Positions 5,666 to 62,915 of a DNA stretch of 64,000 nt are shown here, in pieces. Location of the stretch: assembly GCA_963555755.3 (NCBI GenBank), contig OY820905.2, positions 4,448,001 to 4,512,000 of the forward strand. Reading direction: 5' to 3'. The position numbers and the translations under genes are program-made. Source of the stretch: Nitrospirales bacterium. GTDB lineage: Bacteria > Nitrospirota > Nitrospiria > Nitrospirales > UBA8639. The stretch's first letter is position 1. Each line of letters starts with the position of its first letter. Under the pieces are notes generated by a model. That model was not told where the DNA came from and did not search any database. It saw nothing but the letters and a program-made list of their open reading frames with translations.

Positions 5666-8600
5666 ATGTCGCACAGGACTCCCTCACACTCACCGCAGGC
5701 TTCGATAGAGCAAGAATTGCGGTGGTTTCACGCGTCGAATCGGGCTGTGCTTAATTCCTTAGCGATAGCGGTGTGTACACTCGATCGCAGTGGTGCCGTG
5801 GAGTCGTTGAATCAGGAAGCTGTTCGGTTATTAGGATGGGGCGAATCCACCTGCCGTGGCCGATCCTTTCATGATCTCACCCAGTGTTCGTCCATGGTGG
5901 TGGGTAAGTCGTCTCAGGATGTCTGCCCCATTGCTGACGTGTTACAGACAGGCGAATCTCTGTGGGTCCCTCGAGTAGGTTTGATGAGCCGGAGTAGAGA
6001 CTGGCTCATGGTCGAACTGACCTGTACTCCCCTTGTTGATGAAGGGGCATCTGGTGTCGTGCTGAGTTTCCGGGATTTAGCGACTCAGATTCAGATGGAA
6101 GATGACCTGCATCGTCTCGCCTCGATTCCAGATGAAAGCCCGTTTCCCATCGTGGAGTTCAACATTCAAGCCAATATGTTGTATGCCAATCCTTCCATGA
6201 CTCGACTTATGGAACAAGCGGGATTTCGTGAAGAAGGATTCTCTGCGGCATTGCCCACTGATGTGCAAACCATCGTGGAACGATGTTTGACCCTCGGGGT
6301 GTCCGAACACGATGTCGAGGTCGATGTGGGAAGGAAGCAATATGCCTGGTTGTTTTGTCCGTTAAAAGATTTACAGCTTGTTCGAGGGTACGGCATTGAT
6401 ATCACAGAGCGGAAGCAAGCTGCCGATGAACTTGGAGCGTTTGTGGAGGTGTTAGGCCAAAAGAACCATGAGTTGGACGAGGCTCTCACCAAGGCCGAGG
6501 CAGCTACCCAAGCCAAAGCCGCCTTCCTCGCTATGATGAGCCATGAAATTCGCACCCCGTTAAATGGGATCATTGGTATGACGTCCCTGCTGACAGACAG
6601 TTCCTTGACCCCCGAACAACGCGAAGATGCCGATACGATTCAGAAATCCGCTGAAGGGCTCTTGAGGATTATTAATGATATTTTGGATTTCTCGAAGATC
6701 GAAGCCGGGAGATTGGATTTCGAAGTCATTGACTTCGATCCGCATACCTTGCTTGAGGATGTCTTGGACTTGTTGGCGCTGCGGGCCCACGACAAAGGGC
6801 TGCATTTGGCCGGGCGGGTCCTTTCGGATGTGCCGTCCTGTCTTCGAGGTGACCCCATGCGGTTGCGGCAAATTTTCACCAACCTCATTGGGAATGCGAT
6901 CAAGTTTACTGATCACGGGGAGGTTGTCGTTGAAATCCATGCAAGGGGTTGTGACACGATCAGCGAATCGGAAGGTGGTCCCGAAGGGGAGGACCTGGTG
7001 GTACTGCATTGTACCGTTTGTGATACAGGAATCGGGATTTCTCCTGAAGGGCAACGGCGGTTATTTCAGCCATTTTCTCAAGCCGATTCCACGACCACAC
7101 GCAAGTATGGGGGAACGGGGTTGGGGTTAGCGATTTCCAAACAATTAGTCGAGTTAATGGGGGGAACCATTGGGGTGTGGTCCATGCCAGATCAGGGGAG
7201 CGAATTCTGGACCATCCTCCCGTTTGCGTCCCAATCACACCGTCCCATTTCAGAACCGTTACCCGAATTTCGCCTACTCCAAGGCCGTTCGGTCTTGCTG
7301 CTTGAATCCCATGAACCAACGAAAGTGGGAATTGAGGAATTGTTGAAGGCCATCAATGTCTCCTGTCAGAGCAAGGACTCCCTTGCTGGCGCCCTTCAAG
7401 CTCTGCGCGAAAGGCCTATCCATTCCCAGATGTATGATATGGCCCTCATTGATTGTGAGGGATGTGGGGATGATCCGAAACGCCTCATTCAGGAGTTGAG
7501 GCAGGCGATGGGAGAATCAATTGTGCCCCTGGTCCCCCTTCTTCGTGGGAATCGTAAGGGGAGTGAGCTGGCCGTTGAGGCTGGTGGAGCCTTATGGCTG
7601 ACCAAACCCGTGCGTCGATCGCGACTGTATAAATGTTTGCATGCGCTCATACATCAGCCGGAGGCTTCTGTCAGTCGAGAGTCGTTACCGGCGGATGTAG
7701 ATACGGTTTTGGCACAAGGTCGACCCTCGTCCCACGCCTTTCAAGGCCGGATTTTGGTGGCTGAGGATAATCCCATTAACCTCAAGGTGGTCGTGGGCAT
7801 GTTGAACAAAACGGGAGTGGTGGTTGATACCGTCACGAACGGGAGGGAAGCCTGCGAAGCGGTGGCGAAGCAATCCTACGACCTGGTGTTCATGGACTGG
7901 CAAATGCCGCAGATGGATGGCCTCCAAGCCACGGTAGAAATACGGAGACGAGAGGCGGCAGGCCGTGAAGCGTTAAGCGTGAAGCGTCATGAGAACGACG
8001 ATGATTCTTCTCACGCATTACGGATCACGCCTCACGAGACTTCTCCGTCTCACGTCCCCATTGTAGCCATGACGGCCAATTCTATGCCTGGTGATCGGGA
8101 GAAATGTCTGGCGGCAGGCATGGATGAGTATTTGGTCAAGCCGCTTCGCCTGTCGGCGGTGGTCGAGGTGTTAGCGAACTGGTTAACTCCTCAAGGGGCT
8201 GGATCGCATGTGGAACCGGATCACGAAACAGAACCGGGGTTCAGAAAAGCGGTGGATGGGGACGATAAGAGAAGAACAGAGGGGTGTGGAGAAACTTCAA
8301 CTCATTCCCATACGTTATGGGATCCAACTATCGCGCTTTCTCATATGGATGAGGATCACGTCCTGCTACAGGAGTTAATAGCACTGTTTATGGAGACCGG
8401 CCCCGCGACGCTCTCAAAGATTCGGGAGGCCCTCGATAATCAAGATTACGTGATGGCTGAACGATCCGCGCATACGCTCAAAGGTTCACTCGGGGCGTTT
8501 CGTGCGAAATCGGTGCAGGCCTGTGCAGGGGAATTGGAACGACTCGCGTCTGAGCATCGGTCCGACAGCGTTGAGTCTGTGTATCAGCAGTTGTCTGAAA

Positions 8601-8677
8601 GCACGGTACAGCTCCTTCAGGAATTTCATGAATATGTGAATAATAGTAAGGAGTCAGAAGTAAGGAGTGAGAAGTGA
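5666..8677 (+). CDS. Hybrid sensor histidine kinase (PAS-HisKA-HATPase-REC-REC-Hpt)
   Basis: MSHEIRTPLNG, NLIGNAIKF, DTGIGI, GGTGLGL, FMDWQMP, AHTLKGS. Confidence 0.95.
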   Translation: MSHRTPSHSPQASIEQELRWFHASNRAVLNSLAIAVCTLDRSGAVESLNQEAVRLLGWGESTCRGRSFHDLTQCSSMVVGKSSQDVCPIADVLQTGESLWVPRVGLMSRSRDWLMVELTCTPLVDEGASGVVLSFRDLATQIQMEDDLHRLASIPDESPFPIVEFNIQANMLYANPSMTRLMEQAGFREEGFSAALPTDVQTIVERCLTLGVSEHDVEVDVGRKQYAWLFCPLKDLQLVRGYGIDITERKQAADELGAFVEVLGQKNHELDEALTKAEAATQAKAAFLAMMSHEIRTPLNGIIGMTSLLTDSSLTPEQREDADTIQKSAEGLLRIINDILDFSKIEAGRLDFEVIDFDPHTLLEDVLDLLALRAHDKGLHLAGRVLSDVPSCLRGDPMRLRQIFTNLIGNAIKFTDHGEVVVEIHARGCDTISESEGGPEGEDLVVLHCTVCDTGIGISPEGQRRLFQPFSQADSTTTRKYGGTGLGLAISKQLVELMGGTIGVWSMPDQGSEFWTILPFASQSHRPISEPLPEFRLLQGRSVLLLESHEPTKVGIEELLKAINVSCQSKDSLAGALQALRERPIHSQMYDMALIDCEGCGDDPKRLIQELRQAMGESIVPLVPLLRGNRKGSELAVEAGGALWLTKPVRRSRLYKCLHALIHQPEASVSRESLPADVDTVLAQGRPSSHAFQGRILVAEDNPINLKVVVGMLNKTGVVVDTVTNGREACEAVAKQSYDLVFMDWQMPQMDGLQATVEIRRREAAGREALSVKRHENDDDSSHALRITPHETSPSHVPIVAMTANSMPGDREKCLAAGMDEYLVKPLRLSAVVEVLANWLTPQGAGSHVEPDHETEPGFRKAVDGDDKRRTEGCGETSTHSHTLWDPTIALSHMDEDHVLLQELIALFMETGPATLSKIREALDNQDYVMAERSAHTLKGSLGAFRAKSVQACAGELERLASEHRSDSVESVYQQLSESTVQLLQEFHEYVNNSKESEVRSEK

Positions 8678-8701
8678 TGTCCTGTGGAGAAATACATGGG
8701 A

Positions 8702-9016
8702 CAAATTCGAAACTCGAAATCCGAAACACATTCAAATGTTCAAATTTCAAATGACTCAAACGCTAAGAGCTGGGCCACGTGACCTTTTGCGTTAGTATGA
8801 TCCGTTTGAAACATTGCGTCGCAGCGTAAGTGATTCAAGAACAACACAGGTTCATGGGTTCCCGGTTCATGGTTGGAGAAAGATGAAGGTCAAACCTAGA
8901 ACGGTGAACCTTATAACCTGACTCCAGAGCGTTTGTGAGACAAGGGAAGTCATTTGAAACATTGGGGCTTTGGATTTCGGATGTGTTTCGGATTTCGAGA
9001 TTCGGATTTCAAATTT
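8702..9016. repeat. Heptamer-arm element H2 with internal insert I
   Basis: CGAAACTCGAAATCCGAAAC.. / ..TTTCGGATTTCGAGATTCGGATTTC arms; insert 8817-8952 between two TTTGAAACATTG. Confidence 0.85.
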
Positions 9017-9026
9017 AGGGAACCTT

Positions 9027-9995
9027 ATGTCTAAACCGTCTGACACGTCTGAAATGGTATTAGTGGTTGATGATGATCCTGTCACCTTGGAATGTTTAAT
9101 GGAGACAGTGCGATTGTTCGGTTTAGGAGTATGTGCGGCTTCGGATGGAGTGCAGGCTCTGCGGATGTTTGAAGAACACCAGCCGAGTATCGTGTTGACA
9201 GATGTTCGGATGCCGAACATGGATGGATTGGCGTTGACACATCAGGTGAAGGCGCGGCGTCCTGATTGCCCTGTGATCATCGTGACCGGATATGGAGACG
9301 AATCCACAACCGTGGCGGCCTTGAAAGCCGGGGCCTCCGATTTCTTGCATAAACCGTTTCAACTTTCGGAGTTAAAAAATACCTTACAGCGGACCCTCTC
9401 GCTTGTTCGAGCGCGGTCCATGGAAACCCAGGCCCTCCAGTCATTGACGAAGCTGACGTGGTCGTTCGAAATCGAGAATGACCTTGAATCGTTAGGTGGG
9501 ATTCTGACGGTCATGCTCAGACCGATTGATGTCTGGTTGTCCGAGGCTGGTCAATTGCATGTGCGAATGGGACTGCAGGAGTTACTCATCAATGCTGTCG
9601 AGCATGGGAATTTGGGTATTTCCGCTGAGGAAAAAGGTGAGGCACTGATGAATGATACGTATGACGCCTTGCTAGACGAACGGCGTCACCTGCCCATCAA
9701 TGCCACACGTCGTGTGAAGGTGTGGATGGAACATGATGCGGCCACTCACACGTTTCATTGCCGAATTTGCGATGAGGGGGAGGGGTTTGATTGGGCGCCG
9801 CTCCTTCAGAGTAATGCCGAAGCGATTCCCTCCCTCGCGGGATCCGGGCGAGGAATTTTTTTAGTCAAAACCCTCATCCCGCACATCCAATATTTTGGCC
9901 GAGGGAACGAAGTCGCGCTGACCGTTCAGTATGGTGGAGTGGTAACACGAGAGGAGTCAGGAGTCAAAAGTCAGGCGTCAGGTATGGGGAGCTAA
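9027..9995 (+). CDS. Response regulator fused to an RsbW-like anti-sigma/Ser kinase HATPase domain
   Basis: REC (VVDDD, TDVRMP, KPF) plus LQELLINAVEHGN, ICDEGEGFD, GSGRGIFL. Confidence 0.88.
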   Translation: MSKPSDTSEMVLVVDDDPVTLECLMETVRLFGLGVCAASDGVQALRMFEEHQPSIVLTDVRMPNMDGLALTHQVKARRPDCPVIIVTGYGDESTTVAALKAGASDFLHKPFQLSELKNTLQRTLSLVRARSMETQALQSLTKLTWSFEIENDLESLGGILTVMLRPIDVWLSEAGQLHVRMGLQELLINAVEHGNLGISAEEKGEALMNDTYDALLDERRHLPINATRRVKVWMEHDAATHTFHCRICDEGEGFDWAPLLQSNAEAIPSLAGSGRGIFLVKTLIPHIQYFGRGNEVALTVQYGGVVTREESGVKSQASGMGS

Positions 9996-10045
9996 CAATA
10001 AAGAGATTTCTCACCTTTCACTCTTCACTCCTGACTATTTCCTTA

Positions 10046-10367
10046 AACTCGAAATCCGAAACACATCCGAAACCCAACACTCGAATGTTTCAAACAGGGT
10101 CCTTTGATCGAAAGGGCTCAGTCCCTATTCGTCCCTTGTCATTTCGACCCTTGGGAGAAATCTCGGTTTCGCATTCACCCAACATTACGTTGGCAAGTGA
10201 CATTCGAGTTTTGAGGGCACCTCTAAAAACCGTCCTTTTCCGTGATGGCGGCGTCAGCCGCGTGCTCAAATCCTCATGTATTCGCCCATACATTCCGGTT
10301 TTCCGCGCGCGGCTTCCTTGCCCTCACATAAAATGCCTGGTTTTTAGAGGTACCCTTGAATTTGTTC
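10046..10367. repeat. Heptamer-arm element H3 interrupted by MITE G
   Basis: AAACTCGAAATCCGAAACAC..GAATGTTTCAAAC..CATTCGAGTTTTGA[G]TTGAATTTGTT. Confidence 0.7.
10215..10355. mobile_element. MITE family G, copy 2
   Basis: Reverse complement of 1300-1440; TTGA/TTGA duplication. Confidence 0.9.
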
Positions 10368-15919: not shown

Positions 15920-15981
15920 GAATAGTCAGGAGTGAGGAGTGTGGGAGAAAGGTGTGAAGAGTTGAGAGTGAGGAGTAAAGA

Positions 15982-17178
15982 GTGAGGAGTACGGATAAAC
16001 CGATTCGGGTCTTGGTGGTCGATGACTCGGCGTTCATGCGCAAGGCTATTGCCAACATGTTGGGTGAGTCTTCAGACTTCGTGGTCATTGATACGGCACG
16101 AAATGGGGATGAGGCGTTGGCGAAAGTCGCGACTCTGAAGCCGGATGTGATGACGTTAGATATCGATATGCCCGGGATGGATGGCTTAACCGTCCTTAAA
16201 CGAGTGATGGCCGCGCATCCGCTTCCGGTGGTGATAGTGAGTAGCCTGACCGAAGATGGTGCTCAGGTTACGATTCGAGCATTAGAACTCGGTGCGGTAG
16301 ATTTTGTCTCCAAGCATTTAGGCGGATCGGCACTCAAAATTTCCGACATTCGTGTTCTGCTACATCAGAAGGTGAGAGCCGCGGCCAAGGCCATTGGAAA
16401 AGTGGGACGACCTTCGAGTGAGGTGCAACACGTGTCCAAGCCTCTCACTTCGATCCATACGCATACACCACAGGCCTCGTTTTCGGCTTCACCCACGAAT
16501 TCCTTGGCGTCGCCGGTTCAGACATTTTCACGGCGTGCGTATTATGAAGCGAGCGGCTTGTCCCCACTGCTGGCCCTTGGGTGTTCGACCGGTGGTCCAC
16601 AGGCCCTGCAACAGGTGCTGACCCAATTGCCATCTGATTTTCCTGGGGCCGTCATTGTGGTGCAGCATATGCCAAAAATTTTTACCAAATCGTTTGCCGA
16701 ACGGCTGAACCAATTGTGCACGCTTGAAGTTCGTGAGGCTGAAGAGGGTGACGAGGTCGTGCCAGGAACTATTTTGCTTGGACCAGGAGGACAGCATCTC
16801 ACGTTGGAATGGCGTGGCACCAAAGTGATGACTCATGTCAGTGATCAACCTGTTCATCTGCCCTATCGTCCATCAGTCGATCTGATGATGCAATCCGCCG
16901 CAAAGATTTTTGAACAAAAAGTTCTCGGCGTGGTCATGACGGGGATGGGGCAAGATGGCTTGGAAGGGGTTCGAGCCATTAAGGCTCACGGTGGGACCGT
17001 GTTGGCTCAAGATGAAGCCAGCAGCATTGTGTATGGAATGCCCAAAGCGGTGGAGGAAAGTGGGTGTGCTGACAAAGTGGTCTCTTTATCCCGAATGGCG
17101 CATGAAATTCAATCGGTAATGGCGCTGAAAGACAGTATGTCTTCGCGTGAGGCTCTGTTGGTTCGTGCTTCAATATAG
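15982..17178 (+). CDS. cheB: Chemotaxis methylesterase CheB
   Basis: REC domain plus GCSTGGP, VQHMP, TGMGQDG; catalytic triad intact. Confidence 0.95.
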   Translation: MRSTDKPIRVLVVDDSAFMRKAIANMLGESSDFVVIDTARNGDEALAKVATLKPDVMTLDIDMPGMDGLTVLKRVMAAHPLPVVIVSSLTEDGAQVTIRALELGAVDFVSKHLGGSALKISDIRVLLHQKVRAAAKAIGKVGRPSSEVQHVSKPLTSIHTHTPQASFSASPTNSLASPVQTFSRRAYYEASGLSPLLALGCSTGGPQALQQVLTQLPSDFPGAVIVVQHMPKIFTKSFAERLNQLCTLEVREAEEGDEVVPGTILLGPGGQHLTLEWRGTKVMTHVSDQPVHLPYRPSVDLMMQSAAKIFEQKVLGVVMTGMGQDGLEGVRAIKAHGGTVLAQDEASSIVYGMPKAVEESGCADKVVSLSRMAHEIQSVMALKDSMSSREALLVRASI

Positions 17179-17305
17179 ACGGGAAACGGAAGGCGGGAGG
17201 CGGGAGATGGAAGGCGGAAGAAGATGGAAGACGACTTTTTCTTCTCCCTAACGTTTCCCGCCTCACGTCTTACGCCTTCCGATATGTGCAGAGGAGGAAA
17301 TATCC

Positions 17306-20594: not shown

Positions 20595-20735
20595 GTGAAG
20601 GCCGTGATGCGTGACACGTGATGCGTGAAGCGTAGAGAAAAAGAAGGTCTGGCTTCGACGCATCACGCTTCACGAAATTCCTGTAGAACATGAATATGAG
20701 AACAAAAGATACACCATCGTTAGGAGGATAAGATC

Positions 20736-21527
20736 ATGCTTCGTGCAATGCATACGGCCGCAACGGGCATGGCTGCTCAACAACTCAATATTGACACGAT
20801 TGCCCATAATCTCGCCAACGTGAATACCAACGGGTTTAAACGCAGTCGAGCGGAATTTGCGGATCTGTTGTATCAGATTCAACGACTCCCAGGGTCGAAC
20901 GCGTCAAATGTCGGTATCTTTCCCGTTGGAATTCAGGTGGGTGCCGGGGTGCGTCCTGTGACGGTGTCCAAAGAAAATATTCAAGGTAATCTCCGTCTCA
21001 CGGACAATGCCTTGGATATGGCGATCGAAGGGCAAGGGTTTTTCCAAATCCAACGCCCTGATGGAACGACGATGTATACACGGGCTGGTTCCTTTAAGCA
21101 GGACAATACCGGTAATTTGGTGACGGGAGACGGAGATCCCATGGTGCCAAATATCACGATTCCGTCCGGGGCATTGCAAATTGACATTGGCCAGGATGGG
21201 ACGGTGTCCGTCCTGCTTCCCGGTGTGACCACAGCCACGCAGGTCGGGCAAATTCAACTGGTTCGGTTTGACAATCCCTCGGGTTTGGTTGGGCAGGGCG
21301 GTAATTTATTTTTGGAGAGTACGGCTTCCGGCGCGGCTCAGGCAGGAACTCCCGGATTTTCAACGGGCTTTGGATTTATTCGCCAGGGCTTTCTTGAAGC
21401 GTCAAATGTCAATATCGCTGATGAGTTGGTCAATATGATCATTGCGCAACGAAGCTATGAAATTAATGCGAAAGCCATTCAAACGGCGGATGACATGATG
21501 CAGGTGGTGAACAACCTTAAACGGTAA
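20736..21527 (+). CDS. flgG: Distal rod protein FlgG
   Basis: AHNLANVNTNGFK; YTRAGSF; QGFLEASNV. Confidence 0.96.
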   Translation: MLRAMHTAATGMAAQQLNIDTIAHNLANVNTNGFKRSRAEFADLLYQIQRLPGSNASNVGIFPVGIQVGAGVRPVTVSKENIQGNLRLTDNALDMAIEGQGFFQIQRPDGTTMYTRAGSFKQDNTGNLVTGDGDPMVPNITIPSGALQIDIGQDGTVSVLLPGVTTATQVGQIQLVRFDNPSGLVGQGGNLFLESTASGAAQAGTPGFSTGFGFIRQGFLEASNVNIADELVNMIIAQRSYEINAKAIQTADDMMQVVNNLKR

Positions 21528-21593
21528 GCGGTGAATAGAAGAGAGTCGGGAGTCAAAAGTGAAGAGTAAGGCTCTGCACGGAAGTATGTTGAA

Positions 21594-21901
21594 CAAATCC
21601 GAATACCGAAAATCCGAAACCCGAATCTCGAAATCCGAAACACATTCAAATGTTCAAATTTCACATGACTCAAACGCCGGAGGACAAACAGTACGAGCTT
21701 GAAGGTCGAGTATGCCAATTCGCTCGCTCTGCCCAAATGATCTGTTTGAAACATTGCGTCGCAGCGTAAGTGATTCAAGAACAACACAGGTTCATGGGTT
21801 CCCGGTTCATGGTTGGAGAAAGATGAAGGTCAAACCTAGAACCTAGAACGGTGAACCTTATAACCTGTGGATTTGTTTCGGATTTCGAGATTAGGATTTC
21901 G
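21594..21901. repeat. Heptamer-arm element H4 with four-helix-bundle-like relic and insert I
   Basis: Inverted near-copy of 25135-25433. Confidence 0.88.
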
Positions 21902-21949
21902 TATTACACCACTAACATTATCATGAAAAACAAGAAGGAGGTGGAAAGC

Positions 21950-22699
21950 ATGTGGTGGCTCAGGATCGGAATGTGTGCCATGTTCGTGTTCGCGGCTCCA
22001 TTGTTGACTGTGGCCGAGAACAGATCACCTATTCCCGTGGTGACCACCTCAGCGTCTACCCAATCCGTGACTCCACAACAATTTCAGCGCACTCTCGAAA
22101 AACAATTTCGTCAACAATTTTCCATGGAAAATGTTGATTTCTCCGTCAAGATTCTTTTCCCGAAACAACCTATTGTGGTTCCCAAGGGTCGGGTGGGTAT
22201 TCAGATTCCTCCAGATACGATGAATGGACGAACCGGCCGACGTTCTATTCGGGGGGCGGTGCACGTCAATGAACAGTTCGAGCAAATGGTGAATCTCGTT
22301 GCGGACATTTCCGCCCACATGCAGGTGGTGGCGCCCATCCGTTTTATCAAGGCTCGAGAAATCCTCCAACCTGAAGATATTCACTTGATCGATGTCGCGT
22401 TGCCCGCGCTCCGACATAATTTTTTGCCACACGAGGATATGGCGATTGGAAAAAAGGCGGTGCGGCATCTTTCACCCAATCTCCCTATTCAGCAACCCTA
22501 TCTCGCCGAGCCACCTGTAATTCATAAAGGCGATCGGGTGGTGCTGGAAGTACGCCAGGGTAGCTTGATCGTGCAAACGGTGGGTATCGCCAAAGAATCG
22601 GGAGAACCCGGAAAAACCATCGCGGTGAAAAACCAGGCGTCTGGTCGTGAAGTCATTGGCCAAGTGGTGCATGCCGGGCTTGTCAAGGTGTTGTTTTGA
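21950..22699 (+). CDS. flgA: P-ring assembly chaperone FlgA
   Basis: Signal peptide; SAF domain; GKTIAVKNQASGREV; RBS AAGGAGGT. Confidence 0.88.
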   Translation: MWWLRIGMCAMFVFAAPLLTVAENRSPIPVVTTSASTQSVTPQQFQRTLEKQFRQQFSMENVDFSVKILFPKQPIVVPKGRVGIQIPPDTMNGRTGRRSIRGAVHVNEQFEQMVNLVADISAHMQVVAPIRFIKAREILQPEDIHLIDVALPALRHNFLPHEDMAIGKKAVRHLSPNLPIQQPYLAEPPVIHKGDRVVLEVRQGSLIVQTVGIAKESGEPGKTIAVKNQASGREVIGQVVHAGLVKVLF

Positions 22700-23403
22700 G
22701 TGAATGGCTGAACCGGTTGCCGTGTGTACTGCGAGTGGGGTTTCCATTGGTGATCCTGCTCTTTGCTACGGCATGCGACAAATCCCTGCCGATTTTCCAA
22801 GAGAAAGACGAGAAGATGCCGGATCTACTGATGATGGACCTCCCCCGTACTTCAGGGTCATTATGGCAGGCCGGGAATGGACGGGCGTACATGTTCGAAG
22901 ATCTGCGGGCGAGTCGAGTGGGAGACATTGTGATTGTTCAGATCGTGGAACAACATAAAGGGTCTAAGAGGGCCAATACGGATGTGGATCGTGAGTCTAC
23001 CTACGATGGGAGCCTCGGAGGTTCGTTTTTCGGATTGAATAATTTGGCATCCGTCTTTGTCGATGGAATAGAACTCAATGCAAGTACCAAAAACGAATTT
23101 GAGGGCTCAGGATCAACGAGTCGGGAAGATACCTTAACGGGAACCATTGCGGCCCGTGTGGTGGAAGTGTTGCCCAATGGGGATATGCGGATCATGGGTC
23201 GTCGAGAGGTGACGGTCAACAGCGAGAAGCAAACCATGACCCTCTCCGGGATTGTCCGCCGGATTGATTTAGATACGTCCAATACCGTGCTGTCTTCCTC
23301 TATTGCAGAAGCGATAATCGAGTATTCGGGCCTGGGTGTAGTTGACGACGTCCAACGACCGGGTTGGGGGATCCGTATTCTAGATTGGATCATTCCGTTG
23401 TAA
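22696..23403 (+). CDS. flgH: L-ring lipoprotein FlgH
   Basis: Lipobox ATAC; RASRVGDIV; VLPNGDM. Confidence 0.95.
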   Translation: MSEWLNRLPCVLRVGFPLVILLFATACDKSLPIFQEKDEKMPDLLMMDLPRTSGSLWQAGNGRAYMFEDLRASRVGDIVIVQIVEQHKGSKRANTDVDRESTYDGSLGGSFFGLNNLASVFVDGIELNASTKNEFEGSGSTSREDTLTGTIAARVVEVLPNGDMRIMGRREVTVNSEKQTMTLSGIVRRIDLDTSNTVLSSSIAEAIIEYSGLGVVDDVQRPGWGIRILDWIIPL

Positions 23404-23529
23404 AGATCGGTCGCTCGTGGTGAGTTGTTTGTTGTTCGTTGTTCGTCGCGAGTACTTGGGATCGTACAGTCCTCTTTCTTACTAGCGACGAGCAACCAGC
23501 GACTATTTTCCTCATGAGGTACTGCTAAG

Positions 23530-24660
23530 GTGAAGAGATTCCAGCAACCATGTTTTCTGATCGTCGCACTCATCTTGGCTCTCTTAGGAGGGGATGGGTG
23601 GAATTCCACTGAGGCCGCTCGAATCAAGGATTTTACCTCGATTGAGGGCGTTCGTGACAACCAATTGATCGGGTACGGGCTTGTTGTGGGGTTGGACCGA
23701 ACCGGTGATTCGGTCGTCGGTGGACAATTTACGGCACAGGCGATTATTTCGATGCTCAACAACATGGGGATTAATTTAAAAATTGATCCGAATCAGTTGC
23801 TGACCCGGAACACGGCCTCCGTGATTGTGACGGCGAAATTGCCTCCCTTTGCCAGACCAGGGATCAAGTTGGATGTCCAAGTGTCTTCACTGGCCAATGC
23901 GAAAAGTTTAAAGGGTGGCACGTTGTTGATGACTCCCTTGAAGGCTCCGAATCAAGAAGTCTATGCCGTGGCGCAAGGGCCGATATCGACGTCCGGGTTT
24001 GGCGGGGGTGGGGCGGGAACGTCGGTCACAAAAAATCAGCAATCGGGCGGGATTGTGCCGAGTGGCGCCATTGTGGAAAAGACCGTGGAATTACACATCG
24101 AAGACTGGGATTCATTTTCTTTGGGGTTGCAACAAGCGGATTTTACGACGTCGCTCCGAATCGCGGAAGTGATCAATACTCATCTTGGTGAAGGCATTGC
24201 CACTCCCGTGAGTTCCGGGCAAGTGCTGGTGACTGTACCCGATGCTTTTAAAGGAAAAATTGTACAGTTGATCGCCGCCGTAGAAGGGTTGGATGTCAAG
24301 GTGGACGTTCGAGCCAAGGTGGTCGTGAATGAACGCACGGGAACGATTGTGATGGGGGAACACGTGCGTTTGTCGAGCATGGCGGTCTCTCATGGGAATC
24401 TGACGATCAAAATCAAGACGAGTTTTACTGTATCGCAACCAGGACCGGCTAGCTTTGGCGGGGAAACCGTTGTGACACCGGAGGTCGAAGCCACGATTGA
24501 CGAAGAAAATGGTCGCGTGATTCAGGTGGATGGTTCCATTACCTTGGGTGATTTGGTGAAAGCCTTGAATTCTGTAGGCGTGACTCCCCGTGACCTTGTC
24601 GCTGTGTTGACTGCGGCAAAAGCCGCCGGGGCACTTCAAGCCGATTTGGAAATGATGTAG
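23530..24660 (+). CDS. flgI: P-ring protein FlgI
   Basis: ARIKD..GVRDNQLIGYGLVVGL; NERTGTIV. Confidence 0.97.
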   Translation: MKRFQQPCFLIVALILALLGGDGWNSTEAARIKDFTSIEGVRDNQLIGYGLVVGLDRTGDSVVGGQFTAQAIISMLNNMGINLKIDPNQLLTRNTASVIVTAKLPPFARPGIKLDVQVSSLANAKSLKGGTLLMTPLKAPNQEVYAVAQGPISTSGFGGGGAGTSVTKNQQSGGIVPSGAIVEKTVELHIEDWDSFSLGLQQADFTTSLRIAEVINTHLGEGIATPVSSGQVLVTVPDAFKGKIVQLIAAVEGLDVKVDVRAKVVVNERTGTIVMGEHVRLSSMAVSHGNLTIKIKTSFTVSQPGPASFGGETVVTPEVEATIDEENGRVIQVDGSITLGDLVKALNSVGVTPRDLVAVLTAAKAAGALQADLEMM

Positions 24661-24779
24661 TACGTCGCTTGTCGCTGGTTGCTCGAAAAAATTGGGGTTG
24701 AAGGGTCCCCGTACCAGCAACTGGCGACGAGCCACTGGGGACGAGCAACCAGCAACTGTTATCTTCGAGGAGGGGGCTT

Positions 24780-25121
24780 ATGATTCCTGGAGTTGAAGGA
24801 CTCGTTGCACAAGCAACAGATCATGCGTTTGCAGATGGCCGCATTGAGGCCATCAAAAGTGACATTCAGGAGGGAAAAATTAAAAAAGCGAGTGAAGAAT
24901 TTGAAGCGTATTTTATTTCTTACCTACTCAAAGTGATGAGAGAGACCGTACCGAAGGGTCTTTTCACGGAAAACAAGATGGGAGAGGTGTTTCAATCTTT
25001 TTATGATGAAGCGATTGGCAAGGAATCCGCAAAGATTGGGGGGTTTGGCTTAGCGCAGTACATTGAGGCGAAACTGCGTGAAGATGACGTGATCTTCAGT
25101 CGGGAAGGCAAAATTGAATAG
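24780..25121 (+). CDS. flgJ: FlgJ (rod-binding domain only)
   Basis: ASEEFEAYFI..LKVMRETVP..GFGLA. Confidence 0.88.
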   Translation: MIPGVEGLVAQATDHAFADGRIEAIKSDIQEGKIKKASEEFEAYFISYLLKVMRETVPKGLFTENKMGEVFQSFYDEAIGKESAKIGGFGLAQYIEAKLREDDVIFSREGKIE

Positions 25122-25134
25122 CCGGGATGAGGAC

Positions 25135-25433
25135 GGAAATTCGAAATCAGAATATCGACATTCGAAACACATCCACAGGTTATAAGGTTCACCGTTCTAG
25201 GTTCTAGGTTTGACCTTCATCTTTCTCCAACCATGAACCGGGAACCCATGAACCTGTGTTGTTCTTGAATCACTTACGCTGCGACGCAATGTTTCAAACA
25301 GATCATTTGGGCAGAGCGAGCGAATTGGCATACTCGACCTTCAAGCTCATACTGTTTGTCTTCCGGTGTTTGAGTCATGTGAAATTTGAACATTTGAATT
25401 TGTTTCGGATTTCGACATTCGGATTTCGGATTT
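25135..25433. repeat. Heptamer-arm element H5
   Basis: Reverse complement of H4, including insert I at 25176-25286. Confidence 0.88.
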
Positions 25434-25519
25434 GATGATAACGTAGCCTTATCAGGCTCTCCTGATGAACTTCGCCTTGGATGTTATGGCATCGAACCTT
25501 GGGCAACGAGCACCCTTAC

Positions 25520-25569: not shown

Positions 25570-25887
25570 ATGGCTATATCAGGATCTGATCCTGTCAATG
25601 ATTTGAATCAAGCATTGTTTGGGGTGCGTCGCCCACAAGGAGGGGACAAACGTACAGGGGATGCCTCAACAACTCCATCCGTCGGAAGGATTGGGGATAC
25701 CGTTGCCTTCTCTCCTGGAATTATGGAACGAGAAGCGGTGGTCAATCAAATCCGAGCATTACCGGATATCCGTGTTGAGCAATTGGCCTCGGTTCAACAG
25801 GCTCTTGCTTCAGGGCAACTCCATGTGGATGGGGACCGTCTCGCCGCCGGTGTCATTCGGGAAATAGTGTTAAACGCCGTGGTTTAG
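25570..25887 (+). CDS. flgM: Anti-sigma-28 factor FlgM
   Basis: DTVAFS..PDIRVEQL..ALASGQLHVD..LA; lies between flgJ and flgN. Confidence 0.88.
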   Translation: MAISGSDPVNDLNQALFGVRRPQGGDKRTGDASTTPSVGRIGDTVAFSPGIMEREAVVNQIRALPDIRVEQLASVQQALASGQLHVDGDRLAAGVIREIVLNAVV

Positions 25888-26398
25888 GACCTGAGAGAAA
25901 ATAACTTGGACACTATCGCGCCAAGATTTGGGTCGGATTTGGACGGAACGATTGAGAAACACCCGAGGCCTAGCACAGCGATGGTGAGGGTGTTTCGATT
26001 GAGGCCCGTTCAACCTAGAAACGGCAGTTGGGCGCAAAAAAGACGTGTAAGAAATTGGTGTGCATGGTGCAATACAAAAAGTCGTGGTCACCTCGGTGGT
26101 GATGAGACCTTTTTGTATTGTGCGAGGAGCCTGTCCGAGATTAGCGATCGTGACGAGGGGGGGCTGGTTTGAGTCAGATGTTTCGATCGTTTGAGGCGAA
26201 TAGTGGTGACTATTTAACGAAAAGGATCGAAAGATCTGGCCAAATCCAGCGCACCCGCAGTAGATCGGTCTAATCTTGGACAGGCTCCTTGGTGCGCCAA
26301 GAGCTTGCGCGGACTTTTGTGATCCAACTGCTGCTTCTAGGTTCAATGATGGCCCGAAGATTGGATGCGAGATATCCAAGTTATTTTCTCTCAGGTCC
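25887..26398. mobile_element. MITE A copy 4 containing C (26014-26341) containing D (26127-26287)
   Basis: A ends with TTA/TTA; C with TTCAA/TTCAA; D TIRs GAGCCTGTCC/GGACAGGCTC. Confidence 0.9.
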
Positions 26399-26576
26399 TT
26401 AATGGGGTATTGAAATATTCAAAGATGGGTGGTCCATTATGTGTAGGCCTTCAGTCGTCGCTCGTATCTCGTGAAAGAACGACATACGAGATACGCTTCA
26501 CGAATCACGTCTCACGCTTCACGTTCACAAAGAACGGAGCGAATTGTGTGGTCCCATTTTTGGAGGACATCTGCCA

Positions 26577-28748: not shown

Positions 28749-28917
28749 GGCGTCAGAACGCGTGATGCGTGAAGCGTAATGCGTGATGCGAAAGACGAGA
28801 GACAAGGGCCTTGAAGACTCATGGGTGATTCGTAAAGGGTGAAGGGGGAAGAATGTTGAGTATGAATCTTCACGCTTCACGCATCACGGATCACGCTTCA
28901 CGAAAAGGCATCTGATT

Positions 28918-34722: not shown

Positions 34723-34977
34723 ATGTTAATTTTGACTCGCAAGGAAGGCGAAGGAATCCGTCTCGGGGACGATATTCGAATAGTGCTTGTCCAGTTGAGA
34801 GGCAATCAGGTGAGACTCGGGATCGAGTGCCCGAAAAACATGCGTGTGCTACGGGATGAATTGTATCAAGCGGTTTGCAAGGAAAACCTCGCGGCGATGG
34901 CTGCTGATCCGACGCATGTGCCAGATCTGACCATACATATCCTTCCGCAAACTTCCAATGATTCTCCGAATCCCTAG
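34723..34977 (+). CDS. csrA: Carbon storage regulator CsrA
   Basis: MLILTRKEGEGIRLGDDI..VRLGIECP..RDE. Confidence 0.95.
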   Translation: MLILTRKEGEGIRLGDDIRIVLVQLRGNQVRLGIECPKNMRVLRDELYQAVCKENLAAMAADPTHVPDLTIHILPQTSNDSPNP

Positions 34978-35192
34978 TCTCGTTGCTCGTCTCTCGTCGC
35001 TCGAAAAAAATGAACCTACAGTCACCAGCGACTAGTGACTAATTTGCCTCCCGGTCAAATTTTCCTATCCCGTTTGAGTGGGACATCCTGTTCCTGGGTC
35101 GCGGGTGAGTGCCACTGCCCGTCAATTCACCGTTTGATGCTCGAATGACGTCAAGTCTGACAACGAATCTCACAAAACCAACAGAAAAAGTG

Positions 35193-62580: not shown

Positions 62581-62915
62581 GTGTTGATGATGGTGTCATG
62601 GTCGTCATGTATCGGTGGGTGGTGCTTGTGCAAAGGTCACGAATGAAATGAGTGTCTTACTTTTTATGTTTTGGCGGCGAAGGTGGAAAAACCGGTGCTT
62701 ATGGGAATGGCGTCCCTGGGAAAAATTGTAACCCTGGGCCCGGCCCTGACCCAAAAAGGGCCGAATTTGTAATGGGTGACGCGTCATGCGTGATGAGTAA
62801 GGAGGCAAGAAGGTGAAAGTTAACACGACTCCTCCGCTTCACATATCACACTTCACGTCTTTCAAAGAACGCCGCGGACGCCCTTTTTCAACATTCCCCA
62901 GAAAGGACGGGAAGG

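Follow-up and report, generated by a model that had tools for sequence, protein, structure and literature searches.

The closest known systems to the element described here are the ORF-bearing intervening sequences of 23S rRNA, in which inverted ends form a stem around a four-helix-bundle ORF and heptamers stand before its start. In the passages of PMC4990558 that deal with the Coxiella representative, the terminal stem is cut by RNase III, tandem heptamers precede the ORF and a 176-bp ORF deletion is recorded in one strain. The family of these ORFs, PF05635, is reported to be homologous to Avd of the diversity-generating retroelements (PMC10053308, in its passages on Avd), elements in which a stretch is likewise replaced between homologous borders. 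Two further groups, the TAACTGA repeats of Beggiatoaceae (PMC4679880) and multicopy repeats of Geobacter (PMC2700814), are intergenic heptamer repeats of unknown origin, described in the main texts as tandem 7-mers by start codons in operons, some of them in inverted pairs. Their units are different from those studied here, and the main texts draw no link to a four-helix gene: the terms ‘intervening’, ‘S23’ and ‘IVP’ do not occur in that of PMC4679880, nor does ‘S23’ in that of PMC2700814. A four-helix gene is merely listed in the tables of PMC5524665.

The element examined here, H4, lies in a stretch of 64,000 nucleotides from the chromosome of genome G000 (G000:C1:4448001-4512000; the window, to which all bare coordinates are relative). 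It is placed outside rRNA, between flgG and flgA of a flagellar operon with the order flgF-flgG-[H4]-flgA-flgH-flgI-flgJ-[H5]-flgM-flgN-flgK, as assigned by Pfam and NCBIfam (Table 1). With heptamers before a four-helix ORF and inverted ends for which a long stem is predicted (z = -5.62, not equalled by any of 100 shuffles), H4 is like an ORF-bearing 23S rRNA intervening sequence in layout. However, it is not a member of that class, since it does not lie in rRNA, and an Rfam search with H4 returned one chance match far below threshold. The H4 family differs further in standing between protein genes, in having 42 paired copies, nearly all of them gene-less, and in its heptamer arms, which are longer, and the transposon-like ends outside them. 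The Coxiella element is cut by RNase III; for H4 the stem is predicted, and an RNase III domain gene is present. The single heptamer CGAAATC was seen 24 times in the window against 16 expected, a number reached by 7 of 100 shuffles and thus no clear enrichment.

Table 1. Features of H4, its copies and its neighbours, by position in the window.
Feature	Position	Strand	Basis or remark
flgG-type basal-body rod gene, upstream neighbour	20736..21527	+	Pfam
Remaining arm of an older heptamer hairpin, GAGT type	21541..21566	+	hairpin still whole at the G005 site
Decayed outer end, type A, starting TAA	21567..21594	+	left side only; kin to the ends of a 149-copy 157-bp MITE
Left heptamer arm of H4	21595..21664	+	repeat comparison, fold
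34-codon open frame, chimeric	21665..21769	+	no Shine-Dalgarno-like run upstream; Pfam/NCBIfam searches
Relic 5' end (codons 1-23) of a TIGR02436 four-helix-bundle gene	21665..21733	+	profile and DNA match
Old stop codon TGA (21738-21740) and following block	21738..21756	+	frame differs from that of the 34-aa ORF; in other copies the block stands after the last codons of the gene
Nested piece with GGTTCAT/TGAACC-type repeats	21757..21867	+	identical in H5, 94% at 8818-8920
Right (inverted) heptamer arm of H4	21868..21905	+	fold, repeat comparison
flgA open frame, downstream neighbour	21851..22699	+	true start likely after the right arm
flgH, flgI, short flgJ	22696..25121	+	flanked by H4 and H5 in inverted orientation
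H5, inverted copy between flgJ and flgM	25138..25433	-	old site, interior probably replaced
flgM	25570..25887	+	Pfam/NCBIfam
Third copy	8690..9016	+	different gene-derived part, same nested piece

Several other repeats were noted in the window. Heptamer tracts of other unit types occupy gene boundaries at 7952-7989, 8641-8680, 9947-10043, 15954-15995, 17172-17225, 20599-20680, 23409-23500, 26479-26527, 28753-28907, 34969-35003 and 62764-62810; several of them are inverted pairs, and the same unit types border intact four-helix genes in relatives. An arm-bearing element at 10045-10360 has at least two other repeat families inserted, a nesting that is common among copies. Downstream of flgM, 25920-26330 holds further nested repeats of the CTAGAAAC and CCTAGGAGCCTGTCC types, which also occur inside other arm elements. 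As inverted 96% repeats around flgA-flgH-flgI-flgJ, H4 and H5 (21595-25433) could permit inversion of the block.

The initial annotation had placed a 34-codon frame directly behind the left arm and had read it as the relic of a four-helix-bundle gene. The frame is present as described, its ATG at 21665 directly abutting the arm and its TAA ending at 21769, with a translation of 34 aa that begins MTQTPEDKQYELEGRVCQFARS. The same peptide is encoded by H5, which is, as had been stated, an inverted near-copy, with 283 of 296 bases identical (~96%) and the 178 bases of 21695-21872 without a difference. Direct searches with the 34-aa peptide, of the kind that the annotation had proposed, were negative: no family was matched in Pfam (E ≤ 1) or NCBIfam (E ≤ 10), and tblastn against an initial set of 34 four-helix gene loci from G000 and relatives (L001-L034) gave no real match. 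The peptide falls below the TIGR02436/PF05635 cut-off, as a fragment under any family threshold, and the relic is visible only with a subfamily profile.

The profile comprised 12 intact genes from a search of the phylum (14 of 301 genomes matched; L074 and L078 were left out). Residues 1-23 of the H4 peptide scored 14.1 bits over profile positions 2-24, while the best of 2000 shuffles reached 5.3. In a ranking of 169,036 six-frame segments of the chromosome, two intact genes came before H4 and H5 (ranks 3 and 4), which had E values of 0.7-1.1 at that search size. Likewise, comparison of the DNA with L261, a four-helix gene of the same-genus genome G006, gave 28 identical bases out of 38 and a score of 36, the maximum over 1000 shuffles being 30. 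Profile and DNA comparison together place the H4 codons in descent from the 5' end of a TIGR02436/PF05635 member, and the relic reading is almost certainly right. It applies to residues 1-23 only. A TGA follows the KSE codons in L033 (same-genus G005), in L261 and at C1:1917641-1917798, and matches the old stop in H4; after residue 23 the H4 frame runs out of frame past this stop and then into the nested piece, so that the 34 aa as a whole are a chimera. The peptide is likely without biological weight, and the frame would yield no working protein.

Only L033 among the 34 loci has H4-type arms, and between them lies a gene of almost full length, broken by one frameshift and one stop. L261 is the same gene with two stops, and G000 has a 126-bp gene-less hairpin at this site. 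Full-length genes between the same arms therefore do exist in relatives, and with the profile match of H4 they bear out the proposed descent from a cassette of heptamer arms and a four-helix-bundle gene. The genes between these arms belong to the TIGR02436/PF05635 family (PDB 2rld): L033, L131 and L067 all exceed the TIGR02436 cut-off (3 of 3), and L131 matches 2rld with an E value of 7.5e-12. H4 keeps their first 23 codons. At gene-bearing loci the start codon sits within the arm repeats, and heptamer-type arrays were seen by eye on both sides at 14 of the 14 loci of the phylum search. The four PF05635 genes of G000 stand between other heptamer arms than those of H4, from which it follows that arm type goes with gene subfamily. 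A search of G000 for a gene of H4's own subfamily gave 0 matches at E ≤ 1e-12, with more distant members only.

Some of the gene-bearing loci showed peculiarities of their own. In L001 (G000:C1:3788129-3791404), one copy of an abundant repeat, with ends of the GGGCTGTTGAA/GGGAATGTTGAA type, interrupts a four-helix gene between GTGATGC-type arms (~1337-1525) close to the gene's start. L002 and L004 (G000:C1:3159275-3159628 and 3233663-3234016) are both intact four-helix genes, almost identical to each other and bordered by AT-rich arms; their neighbourhood is duplicated. In L069 (G244), a heptamer arm joins the four-helix gene in frame to an upstream gene that is ispD-like by eye.

The exact 26-base arm was found at 117 loci at least, several of them from single genomes. 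Full genes lie between the arms at two of the 117 listed (L088 and L131) and partial ones at two more, while 113 had no profile match, 37 of the 117 loci having only 300 bases of flank for the profile search; gene scraps are visible by eye in L085 and L162. The titles of 80 listed arm loci name Desulfobacterales and other Thermodesulfobacteriota, Planctomycetota, Patescibacteria, Aminicenantes, Verrucomicrobia, Dehalococcoidia, Gammaproteobacteria, Nitrospirota and others.

On the G000 chromosome, the 42 paired-arm copies are short and non-coding, with terminal inverted repeats. Six of their interiors match the 5' end of L261 and one matches its 3' end above all 300 shuffles, and the other 35 are without a significant gene scrap. 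The breakpoints of gene loss differ between copies, which keep different 5' and 3' scraps, in agreement with the internal deletion that had been claimed for these elements. At the L033/L261 site, where the right part of the 126-bp hairpin is closer to other copies than to L033 or L261, conversion may have produced the gene-less state as well as deletion in place. The upstream regions of cobW-like genes in G002, G003, G004 and G018 gave no four-helix match (0 of 4) and are too diverged for insertion ends to be read. A uniform subfamily of 185-194 bp, with TATAG ends and exactly 88 bases between the arm cores, includes G000:C1:1610608-1610801, 2739368-2739561 and 3695916-3696100.

The opposite polarity, with gene-less heptamer hairpins as the original form and the four-helix gene captured occasionally, would fit the 113 of 117 listed arm loci without a profile match and the 35 local interiors without a scrap. 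We consider it barely credible, given that the scraps hold the first and last codons of the gene with different breakpoints, that the start codon lies inside the arm repeats and that each gene subfamily has heptamer arms of its own.

Descent from a gene-bearing cassette leaves the movement of the gene-less copies to be explained. Like bacterial MITEs, which are non-autonomous IS derivatives, they are short, multi-copy and non-coding, with inverted ends, internal loss and presence or absence between close genomes. Unlike MITEs, the family has a parent without a transposase, its interiors are exchanged at old sites, and its IS-like ends, of two unrelated types, lie outside the heptamer arms. REP/REPIN elements with RAYT carry GTAG/CGTC-type REP ends beside a Y1 transposase.

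Outer ends were found on 30 of the 42 copies (type A on 15, type B on 16, one copy with both types; ten copies have both sides), against 1.2% and 0.4% in 3000 random windows; the 30 of 42 is no independent test, because the end motifs were read off the same copies. H4 retains one outer end, the decayed A, and H5 none. End A is also the end of a mostly 157-bp MITE, present as 149 pairs; of the 95 cases that could be called, 79 have an identical TWA to the left and right, the mark of a DDE-moved MITE. Target duplication is clear for this MITE alone; C1:1926472-1926743 has TTA on both sides. We take the TWA ends to be IS5-like and the TA ends to be IS630-like. The genome holds 70 DDE_Tnp_1 and 14 DDE_3 matches, and is very rich in IS copies, with families of about 40, 40, 20 and 14.

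A self-comparison of G000 and searches with three transposase families showed no transposase bounded by end A or B among the matches listed, and a metagenome scan for an autonomous IS behind the outer ends gave six matches, all unrelated. A type-B-like motif stands at the end of one truncated DDE_3 gene. No outer transposon ends were seen by eye on the gene-bearing cassettes. The initial annotation had proposed a system without a classical transposase. With outer ends on 30 of 42 copies, in a genome with this complement of DDE genes, that claim is weakened; the searches brought up no partner transposase.

Comparison with close genomes was used to follow individual sites. From 30 of 56 arm hits of G005, 30 of 52 of G006 and 11 further loci, 37 paired elements of G005/G006 were obtained, of which 29 mapped to G000 and 8 were unmappable. 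At the 29 sites (one mapping, L209, is doubtful), G000 has the same interior in 4, a different interior in 11, no arm in 12 and one arm in 2. Copies are thus present or absent, or hold different interiors, at matching sites, and the family turns over fast; absence of an arm in G000 can reflect loss as well as gain. Clean empty sites were not obtained, those among the matches listed being too untidy to show a duplication.

The flanks and arms of the H4 site recur in G006, where they enclose a different interior; G005 shows just the older GAGT-type hairpin there, and G003 nothing. For H5, flank and arms are shared with G005, again around a different interior; all that G006 has at the site is an arm remnant of 13 bases, and G003 lacks H5. 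Furthermore, metagenome contigs of close strains, 1-2% different in their flanks (X8, X9, X10, X11, X13 and X17), carry the H4 interior with 0-1 differences in X8, X9, X10, X13 and X17, while at the H5 site X8 and X11 join 25172 to 25492 by 77 other letters. The loose ends seen in X11 and X17, at 21677 and 21868, resemble the interior found in G006, a hint for which another locus may be the source; X11 has no contig across the H4 interior, and this gap in cover was left out of the evidence. The H4 and H5 sites are thus older, with other interiors in congeners and close strains, and the likeness of the two copies is best ascribed to interior replacement at older sites and not to fresh insertion. 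As regards the claim that the elements are still spreading, turnover between close genomes speaks for it, but H4 and H5 themselves are not fresh insertions.

The nested 111-base piece at 21757-21867 occurs only in H4, H5 and 8818-8920, is absent at the matching G005 and G006 sites, and is similar to the start of L003, an intact four-helix gene, and to its arms; in the third copy it sits between two 12-base direct repeats (8806 and 8954). A recent exchange of interiors among these three neighbouring copies (H4, H5 and 8690-9016) may be inferred from these comparisons. A donor for the H4/H5 interior above ~83% identity was not found elsewhere in G000.

The same sites bear on a possible local job of H4 and H5, either as a functional 34-aa peptide or through a flip of flgA-flgH-flgI-flgJ as a motility switch. 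The H4 and H5 frames differ in three places, each synonymous, and the two copies are inverted around four flagellar genes. We nevertheless judge such a job very improbable: other relic copies carry stops or frameshifts, the frame lacks a Shine-Dalgarno-like run, and at the H5 site X8 and X11 lack the interior, which is different in G005 and G006. No strand-change joint was seen among the joints listed, which is weak evidence because contigs cannot span the 178 identical bases.

Arms that persist while interiors change, as at 11 of the 15 shared sites, could instead have been kept as signals for RNA processing or stability in operons, as RNase III stems within which the interior, scrap included, drifts freely. 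The stability of the predicted stem, the RNase III domain gene and the Coxiella element, which is excised by RNase III and whose ORF is decaying in the account of PMC4990558, would all suit this role. Yet the elements are patchy in congeners, with 12 of 29 sites without arms and G003 without H4 and H5; pairing arms within a copy gives no significantly better match than pairing them between copies (a value reached in 1159 of 10,000 shuffles), and H5 is oriented against the operon. Selection of the arms for such a function appears distinctly unlikely.

A route through RNA was also considered, in which the four-helix protein, as a relative of Avd, binds the hairpin transcript and recruits a reverse transcriptase in trans, the cDNA replacing or creating copies by arm pairing and the outer transposon ends being later additions. 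Besides the reported homology of PF05635 and Avd, the replacement of interiors between retained arms resembles retrohoming, and G000 has 34 reverse-transcriptase (RVT_1) matches. Moreover, the gene-bearing cassettes are without outer ends by eye and yet the exact 26-base arm occurs across phyla, and 17 of 22 copies between co-directional frames share the frame direction (by crude frame calls). However, the sense arm shows no adenine bias (A changed at 14 of 400, T at 7 of 160 and C at 11 of 200), the subfamily gene is lacking from G000, where only distant relatives occur, and ordinary recombination accounts for the replacement. In contrast to diversity-generating retroelements, there is no neighbouring reverse transcriptase, with no RVT_1 match within the range of the window and flagellar genes as the neighbours of H4, and no template/variable repeat was seen. 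The RNA route is, on balance, unlikely.

The account that we prefer, and regard as moderately probable as a whole, is that H4 is a gutted cassette remnant, one of a family that picked up transposon ends and exchanges interiors via its shared arms. In this account, H4 would consist of inverted heptamer arms and what is left of the TIGR02436 four-helix-bundle gene they once enclosed, and it would first have inserted at a TAA within the older hairpin. Gene-less copies would be likely to reach new sites through their acquired transposon ends, on which a DDE transposase could act in trans to make new insertions, and homologous recombination or gene conversion via the shared arms would have replaced the interiors of H4 and H5. 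The full-length cassette exists with these arms, the gene-less copies keep different scraps, and most carry outer inverted ends. Borrowed ends and recombination, and not a new enzyme, best account for how gene-less copies spread; spread of the gene-bearing cassette between phyla lies outside the model.

The initial annotation had called the system undescribed. Outside rRNA, no description of the cassette was found in the literature covered, which takes in little of the subscription journals. The combination of heptamers, an ORF and internal deletion is in print for the Coxiella 23S element in the passages of PMC4990558 concerned with it, so that the claim holds only outside rRNA.

For annotation, short frames such as 21665-21769 are to be treated with caution as chimeric relics. 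A single genus presents a life cycle of the element, with full gene, decayed gene, scraps, empty hairpin, capture of transposon ends and exchange of interiors. A far-reaching reading, which we think doubtful, would make four-helix genes with heptamer arms a self-standing selfish element that crosses phyla without a transposase, its protein chaperoning its own hairpin RNA, a borrowed reverse transcriptase copying it and the arms guiding insertion or interior replacement. Were this true, rRNA intervening sequences, Avd and the orphan 7-base repeats would be offshoots, and H4 and H5 would record one replacement event within one species. The H4 finding itself traces the four-helix-bundle ‘intervening sequence’ proteins and the dispersed 7-base repeat hairpins, both long-standing orphans, to a single origin, and it makes testable both how the intact cassette is carried between phyla and whether its protein binds to the arms around it.
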